Shown here: positions 26,509 through 36,859 of the stretch, in pieces
Position numbering within the stretch: the first letter of the stretch is position 1
Layout of the letters: every line of letters begins with the position of its first letter
DNA from: a phage
Length of the DNA stretch: 64,000 bases
Sequence record: PZ154897.1
Strand: one strand, 5' to 3'
The notes under the pieces: generated by a model
What the model saw: only the letters and a program-made list of their open reading frames with translations
The model's database searches: none
What the model was told of the DNA's origin: nothing
Translations under genes and position numbers: made by a program

Positions 26509-28560
26509 TTATCCTTGAACGAACTTGTAAGGCATGTTTGCAATATCTATGCAAGACGCAATAATTCCAAGAGATGATTCTACTTTCTGTTTAACATTTG
26601 ATGAAACAAATGATGCAAAGTCAACTCTATCTTCTATATCACCTGTCATTGTAACCAATTCACCAGTTTCCATTAAATGGTCTCCGTCATAGATTACCGA
26701 TTCGGTGAGTTCTTCTGTGGTCATAACTTCAGCTTGAATAAGCTTGTTGTTAGTTCTAACTGTTCCATCGTTGTAAGATGCATCGGTTATTTTATTAACT
26801 TTGACCATTAATCCACGTGGCAAAATGACTTCCATTTCATTTGAAGGCGCTAAACTTCCACCGGGTAAAACAACATTGACTTTATCAGCCCCAGTAATAA
26901 CCCATCCAATTCCAACTAAATTATCGCTAGAATTTACAAGTCCTTCATCAGTTTTATCAATAGAAACACTTAGACGCTTTTCGTCTGGTAAAACACCTAT
27001 AGATGAATCAGTCATCCAAGTACCAAAAATATTTGGATATAATGATGTTGACACAAAGTTTCTAAAATAAAAAACTCGATTTTTTACCATTGCTTCATAT
27101 ATTGAAGGTAACATTCGTTGTGAACGATACAAAGTAATACCTTTTGGTAATCGTTCACCATTTTTAAAGGCTGAATCTAAATTATCAATGGCTTGTTCTA
27201 TTTCAGGTGCTGTTAAAATACTTGTACGCTCATCTGGATTATATAATCCCAAAAGAGCATTATTCATGTCTACATATCCTGAACCTACATATTCACGAAT
27301 TCCGCGTTTTTGCGCTGGTGTGTATTTAGATGAATCTTTATTTTCGACTATAGGATGTAATGACCATCCAGCGGTAAGAGCATATCCACGTAATTCTCTT
27401 CGAATAATCTTTGTTTTTATTGCATTCCAAGAATTTTGTACTAACTCATTTGCAGCATCTTGGTTTAAATGCGAATGTCTGTTAATATTTCTTTCAAACC
27501 AAGCACCTTTATATTTTTCTAAAGTATCATCGACGATAGAAGCAATAGTTTCTAAAGTTTTTATTGAAGTAATAGATTCTTTTCGTAATTTTTCTAAAGC
27601 TTTATTTTTTATTTCTGCATTAATAATGGATTCTTTATCTTCAGGAATTATAGAAGCTTCTCTGAATGCCATCCCAGCTGTAACACTGCTAAGAGCATTC
27701 TCTAGTGCAAATCCTGAAGTAGAAATTACCGTTAATTCATTAGAATCAGAAATTAAAGGAGCGTCCGCTGGTTTATTTAATTCTGCCGCTGAAGCCTCAA
27801 ATTTTTGAAACATCGGTGTTTCAAATCTAGAAGATTCCAATGACTGACTTTGTGCAATTGCTCTACGGGAAATTTTAACTTTAACGATTACAGCTTGGTC
27901 AGAACGTTTATCATTTTCTTGTGCAATAGATGCTGCAATTGCCTCATTTTTAGTTACTTGAGCTCCAGTATCTTTATTGATATAAACATCACCGACCTTC
28001 GATTCAACCTTAGTAAAGAGCTCGGTACTAATTTCCGGAACCCCTGGAATGTCTTCTAGTGATACATTTTTGCGATGTATAAGAATATATGCATACTTTT
28101 TATCATAATCCCAGAGTTCCTTAAGAAGGACGTATCTGCCACCTGAACGACTACGGATAAGTCTATCAGCAATAACTTGAATTTGTCGAGCTTGACCAGC
28201 GGTTTTAGACTTAAGAATACGGAGCATACAAGCATCAATTTTATATTGACGCATTGTTTGCATTGCAACAGTAAAAACTGAATTGATATAATTAATTGGG
28301 CTTGGCCCAAGACCTTTCAATTTAGCAATTGAACCTTTAGCGGTTAATGTAAAAGGAACAATATGCATCATTTTATCGCCCATCTTTAAATCACGATTAG
28401 TATCACCTCCAGATGTATAGGTACATAAACGAAAGCCCGGTTGTTCAATTGCGTCATCAACATGAACTGAAAAAATTTGCGGTATTTTCTTCTTTGGATT
28501 TAAGTTTGTAATTGGAAGAGTAGTATCTTCGTCAAATAATTCTGTAATTAGTTCCATCAT
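26509..28560 (-). CDS. alt: Alt, packaged ADP-ribosyltransferase
   Basis: 683-aa ORF; T4 Alt is about 682 aa; synteny next to gene 30. Confidence 0.9.
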   Translation of the reverse strand: MMELITELFDEDTTLPITNLNPKKKIPQIFSVHVDDAIEQPGFRLCTYTSGGDTNRDLKMGDKMMHIVPFTLTAKGSIAKLKGLGPSPINYINSVFTVAMQTMRQYKIDACMLRILKSKTAGQARQIQVIADRLIRSRSGGRYVLLKELWDYDKKYAYILIHRKNVSLEDIPGVPEISTELFTKVESKVGDVYINKDTGAQVTKNEAIAASIAQENDKRSDQAVIVKVKISRRAIAQSQSLESSRFETPMFQKFEASAAELNKPADAPLISDSNELTVISTSGFALENALSSVTAGMAFREASIIPEDKESIINAEIKNKALEKLRKESITSIKTLETIASIVDDTLEKYKGAWFERNINRHSHLNQDAANELVQNSWNAIKTKIIRRELRGYALTAGWSLHPIVENKDSSKYTPAQKRGIREYVGSGYVDMNNALLGLYNPDERTSILTAPEIEQAIDNLDSAFKNGERLPKGITLYRSQRMLPSIYEAMVKNRVFYFRNFVSTSLYPNIFGTWMTDSSIGVLPDEKRLSVSIDKTDEGLVNSSDNLVGIGWVITGADKVNVVLPGGSLAPSNEMEVILPRGLMVKVNKITDASYNDGTVRTNNKLIQAEVMTTEELTESVIYDGDHLMETGELVTMTGDIEDRVDFASFVSSNVKQKVESSLGIIASCIDIANMPYKFVQG

Positions 28561-28580
28561 ATCCTCTCTAGTGTTTATTC

Positions 28581-28588
28581 TATTTATA
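28581..28588 (-). promoter_or_regulatory. late promoter TATAAATA (minus strand) for alt
   Basis: Plus-strand tatttata 20 nt upstream of alt start. Confidence 0.65.
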
Positions 28589-28593
28589 AAATT

Positions 28594-28611
28594 AAAGGCC
28601 CGAAGGCCTTT
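28594..28611 (-). terminator. hairpin terminator upstream of alt
   Basis: AAAGGCC-CGAA-GGCCTTT stem-loop. Confidence 0.6.
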
Positions 28612-28798
28612 AATAATCTAACGGTAAGAGAGTACGATATATTTCAAACTTTGGACCTTTTTCATAGGCATCAAATGTTTCTGTGAATTTATTATAAGCA
28701 TATGCATCTACAAATTCGAGAATGACTTGTGATACAGAAGTAGAAACATCTCCACCTTCTTTTTGAGCAATGACAATTGTTTCTAAGTAAGCTTTCAT
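28610..28798 (-). CDS. hypothetical small protein
   Basis: 62-aa ORF overlapping gene 30 stop. Confidence 0.4.
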   Translation of the reverse strand: MKAYLETIVIAQKEGGDVSTSVSQVILEFVDAYAYNKFTETFDAYEKGPKFEIYRTLLPLDY

Positions 28799-30258
28799 AG
28801 ACCAGTTACCTCATGAAAATCGCCAAATACATCTTCGAACGTATTAGCTTTAGTTTTATCTTCACGTAAACGAATCGCAATTGGAAGAAATAATTTTACG
28901 TAATCAGTGCGGCCATCAGATTTTAACCAACCATTGCATTCGCACTCTAGAATTTTTCCAATATAATAATTTTGGTTTTCCATAATGCGAGTACGGTCAA
29001 GTTCATGCGATTTTACACCGGCTTTATCTTTTAAGCCTGAACCAGCATTTACCTTAATTTTTCCACACTCTGACTCAAGAATAAATCCACCTGCTTTAGT
29101 AGGGTCTTTACGGTGAGGATAAATTCCTACAATTTTTAAATCAACATCAATTACTTCTTTAAATTTATAGAGATTTTTTGAACGAGCATTTTCCCATAAT
29201 CCATCGATATTTTTGAGAATAATACCTTCAAGACCTTGGTCAATATACTTTTTATAAATTACCTTAGCTTCATCTAGGTTATTTACTACCTGGTTTTCAA
29301 TTAAAATTACTTTATCATAGCCTGATGTCATTTGTTCTAGTTTAGAAAAACGTACATCATATTTTAAACGAAATGCAGGAAGACCGTATATTTCTACCAA
29401 CGGGACATAATCCCAGACCTGAAACTTCATGCATTGAGCTTCTTTTTCAGAAATGGTTCCCTTTAAAGATTTATTGGCGATGCCATTAGATGCAGTACGT
29501 GATTCAGCTACTTCTGTGAAGTCTTTAACTTTGCTGTTTTCAGGATGAGCATCAAAAAGAAAATCTAGGCCTTCTGGTTCCTTTTCAACTTGCTCATGGT
29601 ATACCAATTCGCCATCAATTAACACGCCTTCTGGATGAATCTGGCGGGCTTCAGCGGTCATTTTGATTAATTCTTCCTTAAGAAGATCTAATCCTAGATA
29701 TTCATTACCGGCTCGTGATAAAAGACGAACATCATCTAATTCATCACCTCGGACTTCAGCAAAACACCGAGCTCCATCTGCTTTTAACTGCGCAAAGGCT
29801 GGAAATTTGATATTCTTATTAATGCCTTTTTCATCATAAGAACTTGCGAGCATTTGAGGTTGTTCAGGAATTAAACCCGGCCAAACTTTGTTTGCAATAG
29901 ATACTGAAGCACCACATTCAAGGTCTCGCATCATAACTCGACGCAAAACTTCAACATCATCCTTTTTACCATCGGTGATATATCCGGTTAATTCCTCAAT
30001 TGCTGCATTTCCAGTCAATTTCCGAGTAGCTAACGTGAATTCAATGAAGTCAAGCATATCGGTAATAGTCAGCATTCCAAAACTCTGAGTAGCAATACCA
30101 GGCTTAGGCCATTTTTTGATATAATACTGCAACCCACGAGAATAAGTCAGACGATATACTCGTTTAAGCAATTCATTATCTTTATTCTTTTCAAGAATTG
30201 CTTGCTTCTGCTTAGTTGAACCAATAGATGCTATTTCATTCAGAATTTTAAGAATCAT
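28795..30258 (-). CDS. 30: ATP-dependent DNA ligase gp30
   Basis: 487-aa ORF; T4 DNA ligase length; ligase motif K-x-DG (IKADGAR). Confidence 0.95.
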   Translation of the reverse strand: MILKILNEIASIGSTKQKQAILEKNKDNELLKRVYRLTYSRGLQYYIKKWPKPGIATQSFGMLTITDMLDFIEFTLATRKLTGNAAIEELTGYITDGKKDDVEVLRRVMMRDLECGASVSIANKVWPGLIPEQPQMLASSYDEKGINKNIKFPAFAQLKADGARCFAEVRGDELDDVRLLSRAGNEYLGLDLLKEELIKMTAEARQIHPEGVLIDGELVYHEQVEKEPEGLDFLFDAHPENSKVKDFTEVAESRTASNGIANKSLKGTISEKEAQCMKFQVWDYVPLVEIYGLPAFRLKYDVRFSKLEQMTSGYDKVILIENQVVNNLDEAKVIYKKYIDQGLEGIILKNIDGLWENARSKNLYKFKEVIDVDLKIVGIYPHRKDPTKAGGFILESECGKIKVNAGSGLKDKAGVKSHELDRTRIMENQNYYIGKILECECNGWLKSDGRTDYVKLFLPIAIRLREDKTKANTFEDVFGDFHEVTGL

Positions 30259-30524
30259 TGCTCATCCTTCAAGGTTTGGTTTACAGCTCTATTATAAATC
30301 AATTCATCATTAAGCTCAGGCAAAGACTTATGATATGTAGTTCTAACTTTATTTCCTTGCATCCAGTGCTTGATATAAATGAAACCTTGCTCTACGCATT
30401 TTTTAAAAATTCGTTCGTCTTTTTGAGCTCGGAATTCTGGATTGCATCTAAAGAATTGATTTACGTGACCGTAATCACGTGTAGTATTACCTTCATTTTC
30501 ATAAATAGTGTGAACGACAAACAT
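30255..30524 (-). CDS. hypothetical protein (30.1 position)
   Basis: 89-aa ORF; synteny. Confidence 0.5.
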   Translation of the reverse strand: MFVVHTIYENEGNTTRDYGHVNQFFRCNPEFRAQKDERIFKKCVEQGFIYIKHWMQGNKVRTTYHKSLPELNDELIYNRAVNQTLKDEQ

Positions 30525-31387
30525 TAGAATGCTCCTTGGAAAATATTATCACCACTAGTAAGTCTATTAAAATACCCTGCGTCGCCAGGCTTAGTATAAC
30601 TCCACGTATGGAATGGATTCATATGATACGGGTGCGTATAATATGGATTATATGGATGTGTATAATATGGATTATACGGATTAAATCCAGGAGTTCTCCA
30701 AGTAGTGTTCCAACGAAAAGAATCGTTTTTAACCATCTTCTCAATTACATCTTTTATAGCTTTTTCACTATCAAAACTTTCTTTATTTTCCTTCGGCGAA
30801 AAAAGCTTATTTTCTACATCATTCCATGTATAAACTCGCTGCGCAGTTTTTGGAATATTGTCACGCTCTCCTCGAGCCATCCAATAAACCGGAACATTTA
30901 ATATTTCACTCGCATGATCGCAATGGTGAGCGAGATCGTCAATATAACAAATTACGTTATATTTCTCTTTTGCCTTTTTGAATAACTCTTCTTTTGAAGA
31001 ATCATGACCACACATCATTACTTCTGAGAAGGCACCAGGAAAAAGAGCATTCAAATTAAATTGACGATTCAACAGAGCGTCAATAGAATCACCCAATGCT
31101 GTAACAGCTACAAAATTATAATCTTCTTTTAATTTGTTAATTACACACAGGGCATCTTTATACGGAGACAAGTAACGAATAAAATCTGAACGATTGTATT
31201 TTTCAATTAACTTGACACCAAGTTCTTCATCACAATTAAAGAGTTTACCTGGAGAAATAAATTTCTCATCTTGGATCATTTTTAAAATATGTTCTAACGG
31301 AAGATTATATTTCTGAGCAAAATAAGGAAGGCCTGATTGCCAGCTTAAACATACTCCATCAATATCAGTCAAAATAGTTGGCTTCAT
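30524..31387 (-). CDS. HAD-like (DxDGV) hydrolase/nucleotidase-like protein with C-terminal YNPYYTHP repeats (30.2 position)
   Basis: 287-aa ORF; N-terminal TDIDGV motif; tandem 24-bp repeat in coding DNA. Confidence 0.55.
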   Translation of the reverse strand: MKPTILTDIDGVCLSWQSGLPYFAQKYNLPLEHILKMIQDEKFISPGKLFNCDEELGVKLIEKYNRSDFIRYLSPYKDALCVINKLKEDYNFVAVTALGDSIDALLNRQFNLNALFPGAFSEVMMCGHDSSKEELFKKAKEKYNVICYIDDLAHHCDHASEILNVPVYWMARGERDNIPKTAQRVYTWNDVENKLFSPKENKESFDSEKAIKDVIEKMVKNDSFRWNTTWRTPGFNPYNPYYTHPYNPYYTHPYHMNPFHTWSYTKPGDAGYFNRLTSGDNIFQGAF

Positions 31388-31848
31388 AGAGAGTCTCTTA
31401 ATAGGTTTAACACATCAATAAATTCAGCTTCGGTTAGTATTGTATCATCTTTTGTTAGACCACTAGCCATGCTGTGCTTCAAAACTTTTCCTTTCGAGGC
31501 TTGTAATGCATCGCGAAAGCCCTTGTTTTGGATCGCTGCTTCAAAATATGCATTTGTGTATAATTCTTTCCACGCCGGGGAGTATCTTGAAAACGGAACT
31601 CCAAGCCAGAAGAGGGTCCCACGGTCCTGAGCTCTAGCATAAGACCTTCCAGCTTGTTGGGCGGCAAGCCCGGATAACCCAAATATACGTCTTTGATGTT
31701 CAACATTTTTCACCTTACACCCTTGGAGGAATCCTTCGAGACCTCCAAATTGAATGCCATCCATAACGAAAGGCCATTGGGCGAAATTACTTAATGCACA
31801 TGATGGCCATTTAAAATTGCTTCTTATCTCTAGCTCAGACATTTTCAA
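31384..31848 (-). CDS. hypothetical protein, possible NADAR/YbiA-like domain (30.3 position)
   Basis: 154-aa ORF; SNFAQWPF...DG...F motif pattern; tentative. Confidence 0.5.
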   Translation of the reverse strand: MKMSELEIRSNFKWPSCALSNFAQWPFVMDGIQFGGLEGFLQGCKVKNVEHQRRIFGLSGLAAQQAGRSYARAQDRGTLFWLGVPFSRYSPAWKELYTNAYFEAAIQNKGFRDALQASKGKVLKHSMASGLTKDDTILTEAEFIDVLNLLRDSL

Positions 31849-32041
31849 TACTTATAATTTCAACATCAGCCCAATGACCATAGCAAGGAAGACGAAATTC
31901 AACTGGCCAGTTAGGGTCCTTTTCTAATATAATAGACTCAACTTGTGGTTCTTCATGTTCATCAGTATACGGACCTTTATACGTTACTTTATATGTGACC
32001 TTAATGTACTGAATTCCAAAAATCTTATTAATTATATTCAT
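31835..32041 (-). CDS. hypothetical small protein
   Basis: 68-aa ORF in compact minus-strand operon. Confidence 0.4.
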   Translation of the reverse strand: MNIINKIFGIQYIKVTYKVTYKGPYTDEHEEPQVESIILEKDPNWPVEFRLPCYGHWADVEIISIENV

Positions 32042-32235
32042 ACTAATTCCTTTAATCCATAGATAGGAGATAATTCATCACCCATACGAAGATCTTCATT
32101 TCCATCTACCCAGGAAACAATATAAGCCTCTTTTATTTGAATACCACTCCATTTAAATGGAGGTAGAACCTTAGAAATTAATCCAGGTATACCAACTCCC
32201 TTTAATTCAACAGTTTGACCTAAAAAGAATTTCAT
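32038..32235 (-). CDS. hypothetical small protein
   Basis: 65-aa ORF, start/stop overlap with neighbours. Confidence 0.4.
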   Translation of the reverse strand: MKFFLGQTVELKGVGIPGLISKVLPPFKWSGIQIKEAYIVSWVDGNEDLRMGDELSPIYGLKELV

Positions 32236-32522
32236 TAAAACCTCATCTGAAAACCATGCGATTTAACATTACCACCACCAATGTCAGAAATATTAATTTC
32301 ACGCGCAATTGAAGGGTCAATGTCAATTTCACGATTGAGTTTAGTGATAGCTAAAGTATCGCGCCCATTTACAGTACGGAACTCTAAAGGACATACTACA
32401 TTAACGTAGTTTTTAATCGATTCGCTGGTAGGTTGCAAATGAGCAGGAAGGTCTTTAGGCGCCTTAGAGAAAACTACTTCGCAGAAGTTTTTACGAGTAT
32501 CAAAATAAGTAGTCATAAACAT
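32235..32522 (-). CDS. hypothetical protein
   Basis: 95-aa ORF, start/stop overlap. Confidence 0.45.
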   Translation of the reverse strand: MFMTTYFDTRKNFCEVVFSKAPKDLPAHLQPTSESIKNYVNVVCPLEFRTVNGRDTLAITKLNREIDIDPSIAREINISDIGGGNVKSHGFQMRF

Positions 32523-32563
32523 AGTATTTTCCTCAGTAAGGGGCCGAAGCCCCTCATTTTATT

Positions 32564-32929
32564 TTAAATATCAAATTCGTTAAGAACTACATCAAAGATT
32601 GCTTCAAGATGCTCAGGTTTAGCTCTGTTACTCAGAATATGACGAATCCAAGTTTTAACCAGAAGCTTACGATTGACGCCATTCCAGCAAGGATGAGTAC
32701 CTAAATCGCGTTGACGAAAATCATCATCTAATGCGATTTTAAAAGAAGAACCTTCTTTCGTGATTGAAACCGTGCTGCCATTTTCAAATCGCATATAAAC
32801 GTAGTTAGGAGTCATATACTGTTCAATTTCGCATACTGATCCATTTTGATGTTTCCAAAGGCAGATAGTATCAATAGAACCTGCAATACCATTAGAAACA
32901 TATTTACGTTCAAAGTTGATGTAGTTCAT
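32564..32929 (-). CDS. hypothetical protein
   Basis: 121-aa ORF downstream of early promoter. Confidence 0.5.
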   Translation of the reverse strand: MNYINFERKYVSNGIAGSIDTICLWKHQNGSVCEIEQYMTPNYVYMRFENGSTVSITKEGSSFKIALDDDFRQRDLGTHPCWNGVNRKLLVKTWIRHILSNRAKPEHLEAIFDVVLNEFDI

Positions 32930-32966
32930 TTTTATTCTCCGAGATGTTTAATTGCGGTACAGGTAT

Positions 32967-32995
32967 ATAATATCATATCCTGTACCAAAGTAAAC
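32967..32995 (-). promoter_or_regulatory. early promoter (GTTTAC...TATTAT) with 8-bp inverted repeat spanning -10
   Basis: Minus-strand GTTTAC at 32990-32995; IR ggtacagg/cctgtacc at 32956-32986. Confidence 0.6.
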
Positions 32996-32997
32996 AA

Positions 32998-33330
32998 TTA
33001 TTTTACTACTTTCCAGTGCTGCATGTCAAGTTTACCAACTTTTTTCATCTTCTCAATTAAGCGTTCGGCACGTTGGCGAGCTGTAACATAATACCATTCA
33101 CCCAATTCATTTTGTTCAATTTTTCCAACGATTACTGTATTCAATTCATAAATCCAACCAGTAAAGAAATTATGAACTTGGATTGTAAAGGTGAAATCTG
33201 TTCCCATACCTTCTGTTGTTTCTACTTCAATAATATCACCTTCAACTGCCATTAAGAACCACATAGTTTCATCATATTTACCATTGAAGCATTTAGTTTT
33301 AACTGTAGCGTTCAGATTAATCGTTTTCAT
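32998..33330 (-). CDS. hypothetical protein
   Basis: 110-aa ORF downstream of early promoter. Confidence 0.5.
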   Translation of the reverse strand: MKTINLNATVKTKCFNGKYDETMWFLMAVEGDIIEVETTEGMGTDFTFTIQVHNFFTGWIYELNTVIVGKIEQNELGEWYYVTARQRAERLIEKMKKVGKLDMQHWKVVK

Positions 33331-33357
33331 TTTATTCTCCTTTGTTTGTGTAAGATA

Positions 33358-33387
33358 ATACTATCACAAAGGAACTATACTGTAAAC
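33358..33387 (-). promoter_or_regulatory. early promoter (GTTTACA-N17-TAGTAT)
   Basis: Minus-strand consensus upstream of ORF starting 33330. Confidence 0.6.
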
Positions 33388-33416
33388 AACTTTGTGCAAT
33401 CTTTGGAAAATAAAAA

Positions 33417-33436
33417 AGGACTCCCGAAGGAGTCCT
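33417..33436 (-). terminator. intrinsic terminator
   Basis: AGGACTCC-CGAA-GGAGTCCT followed by U-run on minus strand. Confidence 0.75.
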
Positions 33437-33440
33437 TAAC

Positions 33441-33617
33441 TTATGCTTTCTGCTTACCAAAACGAGAAGCATCATCTCGAAGAACCGCACGTGCTCGGCG
33501 CATGATCTTCTCAACAGTTTGATTGATACGAGAGTTCGACCCACGCTTGTAACCAGCGCGTTTAGAATCACCAACTTTCTTTTCAACTGCTTTCTTTGCT
33601 TTAGCTTGTTTTGCCAT
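33441..33617 (-). CDS. small basic protein (rIII-region gene; identity uncertain)
   Basis: 58 aa from MAKQAKAKK; Lys/Arg-rich; position upstream of 30.x cluster. Confidence 0.45.
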   Translation of the reverse strand: MAKQAKAKKAVEKKVGDSKRAGYKRGSNSRINQTVEKIMRRARAVLRDDASRFGKQKA

Positions 33618-33855
33618 TATAAATTCTCTTTTAAATGAAAATGCAGGACTTATTGGCATTGCCTGCGCAAGCCCTCAAGGGGAACATAGGTTTTGAATAT
33701 TTACCGACAGGATAACCATAAACCTCGTCAACATTCAAGAGGTACACCATAAAACTGCCGGGGTCTTAAAACTATAATGATTCGCAAATCATTAATCAGA
33801 CAGTTCGATGGCTCCTCGATTTTAGCTCACACTAAGGCAGTGAATCTCCAATAAA

Positions 33856-34104
33856 TTACTTCAGTGTTACCACAAAGTGACGAACTGCTTTTCGTGCAGC
33901 AGAAGCCAGAGGCTTAGCATACTTAAGTTCATCTTTTTCCTGAAGCTCAGCAGCTAATGCAGTTTGAGCAGGATTCAGATGTTTGAAATAACGCAGGATT
34001 TCAAGAGCTTCGGCTTCAACATCAATAGATGCGCCATAGTTTTCGTGACCATTATTCCATGCGTTTCGTTGCAGTTCAAGAGCGTGTTGTAATTGTTTAA
34101 TCAT
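33856..34104 (-). CDS. hypothetical protein (31.-1 position)
   Basis: 82-aa ORF. Confidence 0.5.
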   Translation of the reverse strand: MIKQLQHALELQRNAWNNGHENYGASIDVEAEALEILRYFKHLNPAQTALAAELQEKDELKYAKPLASAARKAVRHFVVTLK

Positions 34105-34251
34105 TTAAAAATTCTCGTTAGAGATTAAAACTCGGTAGTCACGTTCTTCTGAATTTCATCTTCTTTCGACAGATCTCTCAGTTGTAGACTACCACATAGA
34201 ATTGTTCGGTTAACTTATTATTCCGACACCCAATTCATATTATTATTTATA

Positions 34252-34587
34252 TCACTTATAAAGACACGGAATAGCTTTATAGTGACAGGTAACGAATTTT
34301 TGTTTAATTTCTTTTGGCTGCTTAAGACCCAGAGCTACAAAAGGATGTGGAACGTTTCGAATTTGACCAACTGGAAGAGAAGTCAAATCACCAACTTCGC
34401 AGAAACCTTCAGGAACATCAGGACCAACAGAGTGAATTACACACAGTTCAGGAACTTCACCTTGAACACGTTTACCGATAATAAGTCCTGATTCTGTAAC
34501 TTCTTCATCACCGGCTTGTGCAGGTTCAGAAACTAAAATAACATATTCACCGACAGCACGAATTGGTAGCTGTTGTACTTCAGACAT
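34252..34587 (-). CDS. 31: gp31 co-chaperonin (GroES-like)
   Basis: 111-aa ORF; T4 gp31 length and sequence by recall. Confidence 0.9.
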
Positions 34588-34617
34588 CGTTTTTCCTTTT
34601 TGTTAACAGATGAATTA

Positions 34618-34645
34618 ATAATAACAAATAATTCTTAAAGCATTT
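34618..34645 (-). promoter_or_regulatory. middle promoter (MotA box aaaTGCTTTA, 12-nt spacer, TATTAT) for gene 31
   Basis: Minus-strand MotA-box consensus centred about -30 upstream of gene 31. Confidence 0.65.
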
Positions 34646-34952
34646 ATTTACCAATAAATTGAAGCAAATGCTCAACTTTCATACCATTAACGGAAATCAA
34701 TTTGTCAATAGAAAAACCTCGCCATGCACCGAGCTCAACATCAAATACTGGAATCATATCAGTAGATTCTTTCCGAGTAGATTCAGTCAATTTACCAGTT
34801 TGCATGGTTGGCATAAAGTCTGCATCACGAGTACCTTTCATAGTACGAATAGTACCGTCAGACTTTTCAAAAACTACGTTTGAAATACCCATGGACAATT
34901 TAGTTTTCAAAATTTCACGAATTGCTACTTTCTGTTCAGTCGTCAGTTTCAT
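34644..34952 (-). CDS. hypothetical protein
   Basis: 102-aa ORF. Confidence 0.5.
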   Translation of the reverse strand: MKLTTEQKVAIREILKTKLSMGISNVVFEKSDGTIRTMKGTRDADFMPTMQTGKLTESTRKESTDMIPVFDVELGAWRGFSIDKLISVNGMKVEHLLQFIGK

Positions 34953-35189
34953 TTATTTACCTATCACAGTTTTAATATGAGTTGTTCCACGTTCTTTAAG
35001 AGTGGAAAGCAACTTTTGGCATTTTTCTAAATCAGATTTCCAACTATACGGTCTATCAATACAAACCCATTCTGACTTATAATACTGCTTCCATTTAGAG
35101 AAAAAATACTTCTTATACTCTACAGCAAATGAAATGTTCTCGTTGGAATAAGAACTAATTGCTGTGAGTTGTACCAAACGAAATTTCAT
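34953..35189 (-). CDS. hypothetical protein
   Basis: 78-aa ORF abutting cd. Confidence 0.45.
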   Translation of the reverse strand: MKFRLVQLTAISSYSNENISFAVEYKKYFFSKWKQYYKSEWVCIDRPYSWKSDLEKCQKLLSTLKERGTTHIKTVIGK

Positions 35190-35770
35190 TATTCACCACA
35201 GAATTCGTTGATATTTTCCCAGTTTAACTTATTCAAGTTTTTCTTAGGAACATTAAACACTTCAATACCCGCATTTCGCAGAATATCATCCCAGCCAGGT
35301 TTATTTTTATCGTATGTTTCGCAATAAACCAGCTTTTTAATACCAGATTGAGCTATCGCTTTTGCACAATCTGGGCAAGGAGAAAGTGTTACATACATAG
35401 TAGCACCTTCAATTGAAGAACCATTTCGCGCAGCAAACAAAATCGCATTTAGTTCAGCATGAATTTCATTTTTAGACGACCACTCAGAGTGAGCACTACG
35501 ATGTTCTTTCGCCAAGACAAAACGATCAGTTGAACCAAACGATACACATTCGGGCTTATGACCTTGAATGATAGTGTGTTTAGGCTTATTCAGCAACCAA
35601 CCTTGCTCGGCAGCATAATCACAACAATTCACACCACCTGCCGGAGAACCGTTATATCCAGTAGAAATAATACGCCCATTCTTTTCAATTACTGCTCCTA
35701 CCTTCCAGGAGCAACATTTTGATTCTTGTGATACTAAATATGCAATTTGAAGTACTGTACTCGCTTTCAT
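35189..35770 (-). CDS. cd: dCMP deaminase
   Basis: 193-aa ORF; zinc motifs HAE...PCxxC; T4 Cd length. Confidence 0.9.
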   Translation of the reverse strand: MKASTVLQIAYLVSQESKCCSWKVGAVIEKNGRIISTGYNGSPAGGVNCCDYAAEQGWLLNKPKHTIIQGHKPECVSFGSTDRFVLAKEHRSAHSEWSSKNEIHAELNAILFAARNGSSIEGATMYVTLSPCPDCAKAIAQSGIKKLVYCETYDKNKPGWDDILRNAGIEVFNVPKKNLNKLNWENINEFCGE

Positions 35771-36105
35771 TTCATAATCACCAGATAAGCAGATTTAGCA
35801 GTTTCAACACGATAAATTTCGTGACGAAGTTTAGTTATACTTTTAATAACAGAACTAATTATATTCTGCCCATCTTTAAAGCGGTTTTTCTTATCAATAA
35901 AAATTGCGCCAATCATCTTTTTGTGAAGCTCAACCGGATACTTCGTCACAATAATAGCATCATACACAGAAGGATGAATACTGTTCACCAGAGTATCATT
36001 CATTAAAGTTATTCTAATGAACTGTGCTGTTTCAGAGTCAAGCGCTCTATGATCGCCAGTATCATTTTCAAGACAATTATCAATTATATCAGTTAAATTC
36101 ATCAT
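35767..36105 (-). CDS. hypothetical protein (cd.1 position)
   Basis: 112-aa ORF. Confidence 0.5.
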   Translation of the reverse strand: MMNLTDIIDNCLENDTGDHRALDSETAQFIRITLMNDTLVNSIHPSVYDAIIVTKYPVELHKKMIGAIFIDKKNRFKDGQNIISSVIKSITKLRHEIYRVETAKSAYLVIMK

Positions 36106-36338
36106 AGTACGCCATACACCCTTTGTGCTTCAACTAATCCATCAAAATCCAGTTTAAGATGTGTTATTTGGTCACCATCACCTGGATTCACAATTACTAA
36201 TACTGAACGAGGAGTCTCGGTAATAACACGAACCGATGTTTCAGGAAATCGTTCAGAAACCTTATTTACCAATTCTTGAGCAAATAGTTTAACTTTTTCT
36301 TGGAATTCTTTAACAGTAATTGGTTTTTCGCTTAGCAT
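36102..36338 (-). CDS. hypothetical protein
   Basis: 78-aa ORF. Confidence 0.45.
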   Translation of the reverse strand: MLSEKPITVKEFQEKVKLFAQELVNKVSERFPETSVRVITETPRSVLVIVNPGDGDQITHLKLDFDGLVEAQRVYGVL

Positions 36339-36859
36339 GTTGATCCCAGCTCCTTACTTTCAACGTTTTTAACTAATTTGACAGAAACTAATTCGGCATC
36401 TTGGGTAATCATTACCGGGCCTTCTTCATACTCTTCAAGATATTCTAGAGCTTTCTTTTTAGCTTCTTCCTTCGTATCAGTTTGAGCATAGATATAGAAC
36501 ATACAACCAGTAATACCTACTACTTTCCACTTAATTTCTTTATCAGCTTTAATTTCAAATTTACTGACAGAATCATCTTTTTGAACTTCTTCGAAAAAAG
36601 AATATTCTAACATATAAGCAATTGAAAATAACGGGCTAACTTTATAGGATTCGCCCATTACATCAACAGCTTTATACCAGCAATCGTCAATTTCGCGTTT
36701 AATGCTAATAACATTTTTCGCAGGATCTATTTTTACTTTAAATGAATTTTCCCCAATAAACTGGGCAATTCGTTTATTAGCCCCGCAAGTTTCATTAAAA
36801 ATATCTTTATATCCAGCTTTAAAGCGATAAACCTTACCTTCTTCAAACCATTCGCTCAT
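36332..36859 (-). CDS. hypothetical protein
   Basis: 175-aa ORF downstream of early promoter. Confidence 0.5.
   Translation of the reverse strand: MSEWFEEGKVYRFKAGYKDIFNETCGANKRIAQFIGENSFKVKIDPAKNVISIKREIDDCWYKAVDVMGESYKVSPLFSIAYMLEYSFFEEVQKDDSVSKFEIKADKEIKWKVVGITGCMFYIYAQTDTKEEAKKKALEYLEEYEEGPVMITQDAELVSVKLVKNVESKELGSTC

Follow-up and report, generated by a model that had tools for sequence, protein, structure and literature searches.

The phage gene family considered here is said to have been classified as NADAR on bioinformatic grounds by de Souza and Aravind more than a decade ago. NADAR proteins reverse the guanine ADP-ribosylation introduced by DarT1 (Schuller et al. 2023, PMC11543638), and those encoded by phages have been named "gp30.3 proteins" (Toxins 2024, PMC11125620). 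A NADAR of an E. coli phage, belonging to these gp30.3 proteins (which were noted to include that of T4), hydrolysed guanine-ADPr but not thymine-ADPr in vitro, and did not rescue E. coli from DarT1 (PMC11125620). In the last strand of the fold, the YbiA family has a glutamate, which gives way to aspartate in NADARs associated with DarT and to histidine in those of phages (PMC11543638, PMC11125620).

[quoted passage not shown] The gene was necessary and sufficient for this resistance; adfN deletion mutants of T4 and T2 formed no plaques on DarTG1 hosts, and adfN(T4) supplied ectopically restored the plaquing of RB69 (PMC11825919). Purified AdfN strips ADP-ribose from DarT1-modified DNA while its E36A variant does not, both E36A and K43A impair AdfN(T4), and the protein does not bind DarT1 (PMC11825919). 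The sensitivity of RB69 was assigned to the insertion of a T at position 411, which leaves a protein 15 residues shorter with its C-terminal helix gone, and C-terminal truncation lowers AdfN activity (PMC11825919). In an independent transposon screen of T4 (HIDEN-SEQ), insertions in 30.3/adfN were lost on DarTG1 hosts (bioRxiv 10.1101/2025.11.20.689424). In uninfected E. coli, AdfN(T4) gives no rescue from DarT1, and its rescue of T5 and Bas25 is only weak (PMC11825919, PMC11125620); therefore, the enzyme by itself does not fully account for the mechanism in vivo.

Gene 30.3 and its boundaries in the window

We analysed a stretch of phage DNA of 64,000 nucleotides (sequence record PZ154897.1; hereafter the window). 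By its sequence, the window comes from a T4-like phage of the genus Tequatrovirus. The 3-kb segment around the ORF under study matched 732 phage records, mostly of Escherichia/Shigella Tequatrovirus, with a best identity of 97.8%. Positions 27055-36337 of the window are colinear with positions 124000-133267 of T4 at 96% identity, and the gene order in T4 is alt, alt.1, 30 (DNA ligase), 30.1, 30.2, 30.3, 30.4. The label "30.3 position", which had been given to the ORF in the original prediction, is correct by this colinearity and gene order. About 520 bp at 36337-36857 of the window are without a T4 counterpart and represent an insertion at the cd.2/cd.3 junction (T4 133267/133269).

In the ORF listing of the window, the ORF spans 31384..31848 (minus strand) and has 154 aa counted from a TTG start. 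The original prediction had reported a gene at these positions; the gene is real, while the strand had been left out and the start probably lies at a different codon. In T4 and AR1, the orthologous 30.3 CDS is annotated from an ATG that follows the TTG by two codons (459 nt, 152 aa), and the CDS of adfN in the window most likely occupies 31384..31842 (minus strand), starting from the ATG at 31842 and encoding 152 aa followed by a stop. This ATG overlaps the stop codon of the upstream neighbour 30.4 (ATGTCTGA), and the adfN stop codon overlaps the start of 30.2 (ATGA). Gene 30.4 (31835..32041, minus strand), placed from the ORF listing and T4 synteny, encodes 68 aa and belongs to phrog_2042, which carries the PHROGs label unknown function. 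Clearly, the ORF is a genuine gene and did not arise by chance, because its product matches Pfam family PF08010 (E=1.1e-69), homologues were found in 1511 phage records by tblastn and in 1449 cluster representatives by an exhaustive profile search (E<=0.001), and the substitutions that separate it from its relatives are mostly at third codon positions. A consensus scan of positions 28500-34500 found 23 promoter matches (21±4.6 by chance) and four terminator matches (3.5±1.9 by chance), with no excess of either.

Inside adfN, in its +1 frame, lies the 75-aa ORF 30.3' (31479..31706, minus strand), which appears in the ORF listing, is annotated in T4 and matches the Pfam family DUF2883 (E=1e-49). 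We rejected 30.3' as unlikely to be a second functional gene, as it contains an internal stop in RB69, has no ATG in WG01 and encodes proteins that are 72% (RB69) and 63% (WG01) identical to that of the window, far below the 96% and 86% of adfN over the same DNA. Within the overlap, 26 of the 39 substitutions in WG01 and 20 of the 28 in RB69 fall at third codon positions of adfN, which points to selection on adfN and not on 30.3'. The internal ORF is probably an unselected by-product, despite having a Pfam family of its own.

Assignment to the NADAR fold

The original prediction had proposed a possible NADAR/YbiA-like motif in the protein and a link of such domains to the reversal of nucleic-acid ADP-ribosylation. 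The string that it quoted, CALSNFAQWPFVMDGIQFGGLEGFLQGCKV, stands verbatim in the translation of the 31384..31848 ORF, and the quoted block covers residues C15-V44 (31711..31800, minus strand). Read directly from the sequence, this block holds the LSNF motif (L17-F20) and the catalytic glutamate and lysine of the (S/L)E-x-(Y/F)-x-Q-x-x-K block, namely E36 (codon at 31735-31737, minus strand) and K43 (codon at 31714-31716, minus strand).

In the Pfam scan, PF08010 (Phage_30_3, "Bacteriophage protein GP30.3") was the sole family matched by the window protein, at 233.1 bits against a gathering cutoff of 36 and over the full profile (1-138). The NADAR profile PF08719 went unmatched in a direct hmmscan, even with the cutoff relaxed to E<=10, because PF08010, the model of its own family, captures the protein. 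We considered and rejected this missing match as a refutation of NADAR membership, since the profile-profile and structure tests described below were positive. NCBIfam holds no family for the protein. In PHROGs, it falls in phrog_652 (annotated as unknown function); the profile of this family has a length of 296 and matches the window protein only via profile positions 126-272.

Among PDB sequences, the first or nearly first match was E. coli YbiA (2b3w), aligned on the motif of the original prediction at a sub-threshold E=0.86 in a single-sequence phmmer search and at E=0.055, still sub-threshold, with a 10-sequence profile. These sequence-only matches served solely as a lead, and the gp30.3 and YbiA families were compared as alignments. 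The first alignment (A2) comprised 51 diverse single-domain members of the gp30.3 family with a mean column identity of 39%. N19 and E36 do not vary in it, and conservation is at least 90% at L17, S18, G37, L39, Q40, K43, H123 and other positions. Every one of the 51 members matched PF08010 when scanned individually against Pfam, and nine of them also matched the NADAR profile PF08719 (best E=1.1e-4). The converse cross-match was also present, as precomputed PF08010 hits exist on several close homologues of YbiA. Comparison of A2 with a 25-sequence alignment of the YbiA family (A3) by hhalign gave a probability of 97.5% and E=8e-12 over 142 columns, pairing LSNFA with FSNFA, LEGFLQGCK with SEHYFQAQK, E36 with YbiA E48 and K43 with YbiA K55. 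The test against the Pfam NADAR/DUF1768 profile that accompanied the original prediction thus came out negative in the direct scan, and positive through hhalign and through the nine relatives of 51 that match PF08719.

The family searches also gave observations on other proteins. Four of the 51 members of A2 matched DUF6939 (PF22075) weakly (best E=8.8e-4), which hints that DUF6939 may be another NADAR-related family. Among the gp30.3-family representatives P0023-P0026, P0031 and P0037, some are 290-480 aa long, with two or three distinct regions that match the profile; judged by this pattern, they are tandem NADAR repeats or fusions. In other representatives, which are 350-560 aa long, the domain is C-terminal and is preceded by an uncharacterised N-terminal part.

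The AlphaFold2 model of the window protein had a mean pLDDT of 90.6 and a pTM of 0.86. Its secondary structure elements are strands at residues 3-6, 25-27/30-32, 76-79/82-85 and 120-123, and helices at 35-41, 47-54, 58-66, 89-105, 107-115 and 138-151. In a Foldseek search, the top three PDB matches of the model were precisely the three NADAR structures solved so far, all at probability 1.00: E. coli YbiA 2b3w (E=3e-5, TMq 0.68), the DarT1-associated NADAR of Geobacter lovleyi 8bat, and the NADAR of Phytophthora (P. nicotianae) with ADP-ribose 8bau. They are followed by a gap, with a fourth match at probability 0.05 (E=2.7) and the rest at 0.08 or below, so that NADAR structures are the sole confident PDB matches of the predicted structure. 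Because the family cross-matches, hhalign and Foldseek agree, the window protein has the NADAR fold and belongs to the gp30.3 branch. These results, together with the literature on T4 gp30.3, bear out the proposed motif, and the proposed link to the reversal of nucleic-acid ADP-ribosylation finds its support in the work on T4 gp30.3 (AdfN), to which the window protein is 98% identical.

The last strand of the model (120-123) ends in H123 (LKHS; codon CAC at 31474..31476, minus strand). This residue is the histidine that defines the phage subfamily, and its exact structural equivalence to PnNADAR E125 is putative. The strand bears on the notion that the protein could be a YbiA-type N-glycosidase acting on intermediates of the riboflavin pathway, in metabolic housekeeping. 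YbiA is indeed its best single structural match, with the active-site block aligned, and the YbiA family is its profile-profile match. However, the protein has the phage-type histidine in place of the signature glutamate of the last strand, guanine-ADPr is hydrolysed in vitro even by YbiA (PMC11125620), and the phage phenotype is specific to defence. We consider a housekeeping role of this kind to have almost no probability.

The window allele, its predicted role and gene 30.2

The window protein is identical to T4 gp30.3 (NP_049816) at 149 of 152 residues (98%). It shares with AdfN(T4) its length, its place between 30.4 and 30.2, the catalytic E36 and K43, H123 and the C-terminal helix, and differs from it by the conservative substitutions R11K, Q49H and I125M; nothing else was detected. 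K11 and M125 also occur in AR1 and RB69, and H49 in the more distant homologues P0008, P0009 and P0011. AdfN(RB69) is 96% identical to the window protein over residues 1-137, where its reading frame is broken by the single added T, with a TGA stop after T137. RB69 reads AACTTGAAG at this site, while T4 and the window both read AACCGAAG and lack the frameshift. The frameshift removes the last helix from the protein of RB69, which is DarTG1-sensitive, whereas the window allele runs uninterrupted to L152, with residues E138-L152 (31387..31431, minus strand) forming the C-terminal helix of the model.

Defective alleles are found in nature, including the frameshifted one of RB69 and truncated or fused database entries of the family (P0007, P0012, P0014 and P0016), and the window allele might likewise be a decayed, non-functional copy. 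Its frame is nevertheless full-length, its C-terminus is identical to that of T4, its catalytic residues are complete and its three conservative substitutions are each seen in other phages, and we regard decay as highly improbable. Orthology with T4 30.3, the NADAR fold, the conserved catalytic residues and the intact C-terminus are properties of the window allele itself. From the activity and phenotype published for the T4 and T2 alleles, it can be expected with high confidence to behave like the T4 allele.

RB69 belongs to the genus Mosigvirus, and the region around its adfN (RB69 L004 7410-8889, compared with window 30524-32041) differs in conservation from gene to gene. AdfN is 96% identical, but identity falls to 73% for 30.2 and 49% for 30.4 on its flanks, which suggests that adfN was exchanged horizontally between genera in recent times.

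Taken as a whole, the evidence makes us highly confident that the gene is the Tequatrovirus ortholog of T4 30.3 (adfN), encoding a NADAR enzyme that removes ADP-ribose from the guanines of phage DNA and counters DarTG1. During infection of a DarTG1 host, the DarT1 toxin would ADP-ribosylate guanine bases in the phage DNA and block its replication. AdfN, a single-domain enzyme of the gp30.3 NADAR branch made during infection, would hydrolyse the N-glycosidic bond between ADP-ribose and guanine, restoring unmodified DNA and allowing replication. It would act as a phage-carried orphan copy of the DarG1 antitoxin activity, without binding DarT1 and without reversing the thymine ADP-ribosylation of DarT2. 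The phage of the window is thus predicted to be resistant to defences of the DarTG1 type, which ADP-ribosylate guanine. Both the gene and its function are already known, and the anti-DarTG1 role is not a new finding; the plating of deletion mutants on hosts with ADP-ribosylating toxins, proposed along with the original prediction, is already published for T4 and T2 (PMC11825919). The practical value of the assignment lies in annotation, as most of the approximately 1500 phage records with the gene still say "hypothetical protein". The product of 31384..31842 can be annotated as a phage-type NADAR DNA ADP-ribosylglycohydrolase, on the basis of the ORF, the start in T4 and AR1, the identity to T4, PF08010, the fold and hhalign.

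Before experiments were available, phage NADARs were proposed to act on soluble substrates (Iyer et al. 2022, PMC9503650), and the protein could mainly degrade small molecules derived from NAD+/ADP-ribose, such as immune signals or by-products of RNA repair, and not DNA adducts. In some phages, NADAR genes adjoin genes for NAD+ salvage, and the failure of AdfN(T4) to serve as an antitoxin in uninfected cells leaves room for a further or different substrate in vivo. Against this stand the direct removal of ADP-ribose from DNA in vitro and the DarTG1-specific phenotype of the T4 and T2 deletions, and no NAD+ salvage genes flank adfN in the window. It is very unlikely that soluble molecules are the main substrate, and a side activity of AdfN on soluble ADPr signals is not needed to explain the data.

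The downstream neighbour 30.2 (30524..31387, minus strand) is labelled "hypothetical" in almost every record, and no Pfam family matched it. Its HAD motifs stand out in a 33-sequence alignment, with D8-x-D10, K132 and D150-D151 unchanged throughout and T96 at least 90% conserved, and its profile matched the mouse 5'(3')-deoxyribonucleotidase 2jao at E=0.014. The AF2 model of 30.2 is confident over the N-terminal two-thirds, drops after about residue 200 and has a pLDDT below 50 at residues 249-287; in Foldseek it matched HAD hydrolases, including the deoxyribonucleotidases 2jao, 2i7d, 3bwv and 4yih, at probability 1.00. By its conserved motifs, profile and model, 30.2 is a HAD-superfamily hydrolase resembling 5'(3')-deoxyribonucleotidases. 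The 3' part of the gene contains a 24-nt tandem repeat at 30626-30681 (2.3 copies, 87% matches), which encodes a duplicated NPYNPYYTHPY in the disordered tail (pLDDT <50), rich in Pro, Tyr and Asn. Because of this repeat in its tail, 30.2 is longer in the window than in T4 (287 vs 278 aa).

Homologues of 30.2 follow those of 30.3 in T4, AR1, RB69, WG01 and Acinetobacter phage Morttis, and the gene downstream of the NADAR gene in Vibrio phage nt-1 is a clear NT5C (E=4e-11). The order of a NADAR gene and then a HAD/NT5C gene thus recurs in distant phages, namely Morttis and nt-1. The two genes are not adjacent in Karamvirus KaAlpha and Krischvirus MIZ4, and several genes lie between them in a Proteus phage. 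We rejected 30.2 as an obligatory partner of AdfN, since adjacency is not kept in KaAlpha, MIZ4 and the Proteus phage. An "additional T-even protein" has been invoked to account for AdfN(T4) working fully only in a T-even infection (PMC11825919), and 30.2 could be that protein. If so, it might process the released ADP-ribose or phosphoribosyl remnant, or act alongside AdfN at replicating DNA. We think such a contribution unlikely; the text on HIDEN-SEQ names only 30.3/adfN for DarTG1 (bioRxiv 10.1101/2025.11.20.689424). We list 30.2 as context of adfN and not as a proven part of the system.

Comparison with other NADAR systems

The best structural match of the window protein, E. coli YbiA (PF08719), is 18% identical to it and carries the glutamate signature. 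Both YbiA and gp30.3 hydrolyse guanine-ADPr in vitro, and YbiA gives no protection against DarT1 in vivo (PMC11125620). The ybiA gene is chromosomal and adjoins dinG and ybiB, its product has been proposed to be an N-glycosidase of riboflavin intermediates, and its locus has been described as a LexA-controlled operon (PMC11125620).

DarG1 and the other DarT1-associated NADAR antitoxins (BC4488 family; G. lovleyi 8bat, E. coli C7 NADAR) have their fold in common with the window protein (Foldseek probability 1.00) and share with AdfN the removal of ADP-ribose from guanine in DNA. The window protein is much smaller than these antitoxins (152 vs 219 aa) and has His in the last strand where they have a catalytic Asp. 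No DarT toxin gene lies beside adfN, whose neighbours are 30.4 and 30.2 (the HAD hydrolase). The nearest ADP-ribosyltransferase is the phage's own Alt, encoded several genes downstream and annotated in T4 as a protein ADP-ribosyltransferase that targets RNA polymerase. In addition, AdfN(T4) cannot replace DarG1 in uninfected cells (PMC11825919). In its mode of action, the window protein resembles a DarG1 antitoxin, but the lack of an adjacent DarT gene and the His instead of Asp in the last strand place it outside that class.

AdfN(Bas32) and AdfN(Bas60), which are NADARs of T5-like and Vequintavirinae phages, have their counter-defence logic and guanine specificity in common with AdfN(T4). 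Unlike AdfN(T4), AdfN(Bas32) and AdfN(Bas60) were acquired independently from other NADAR branches, and they are active outside T-even infections, serving even uninfected cells as antitoxins.
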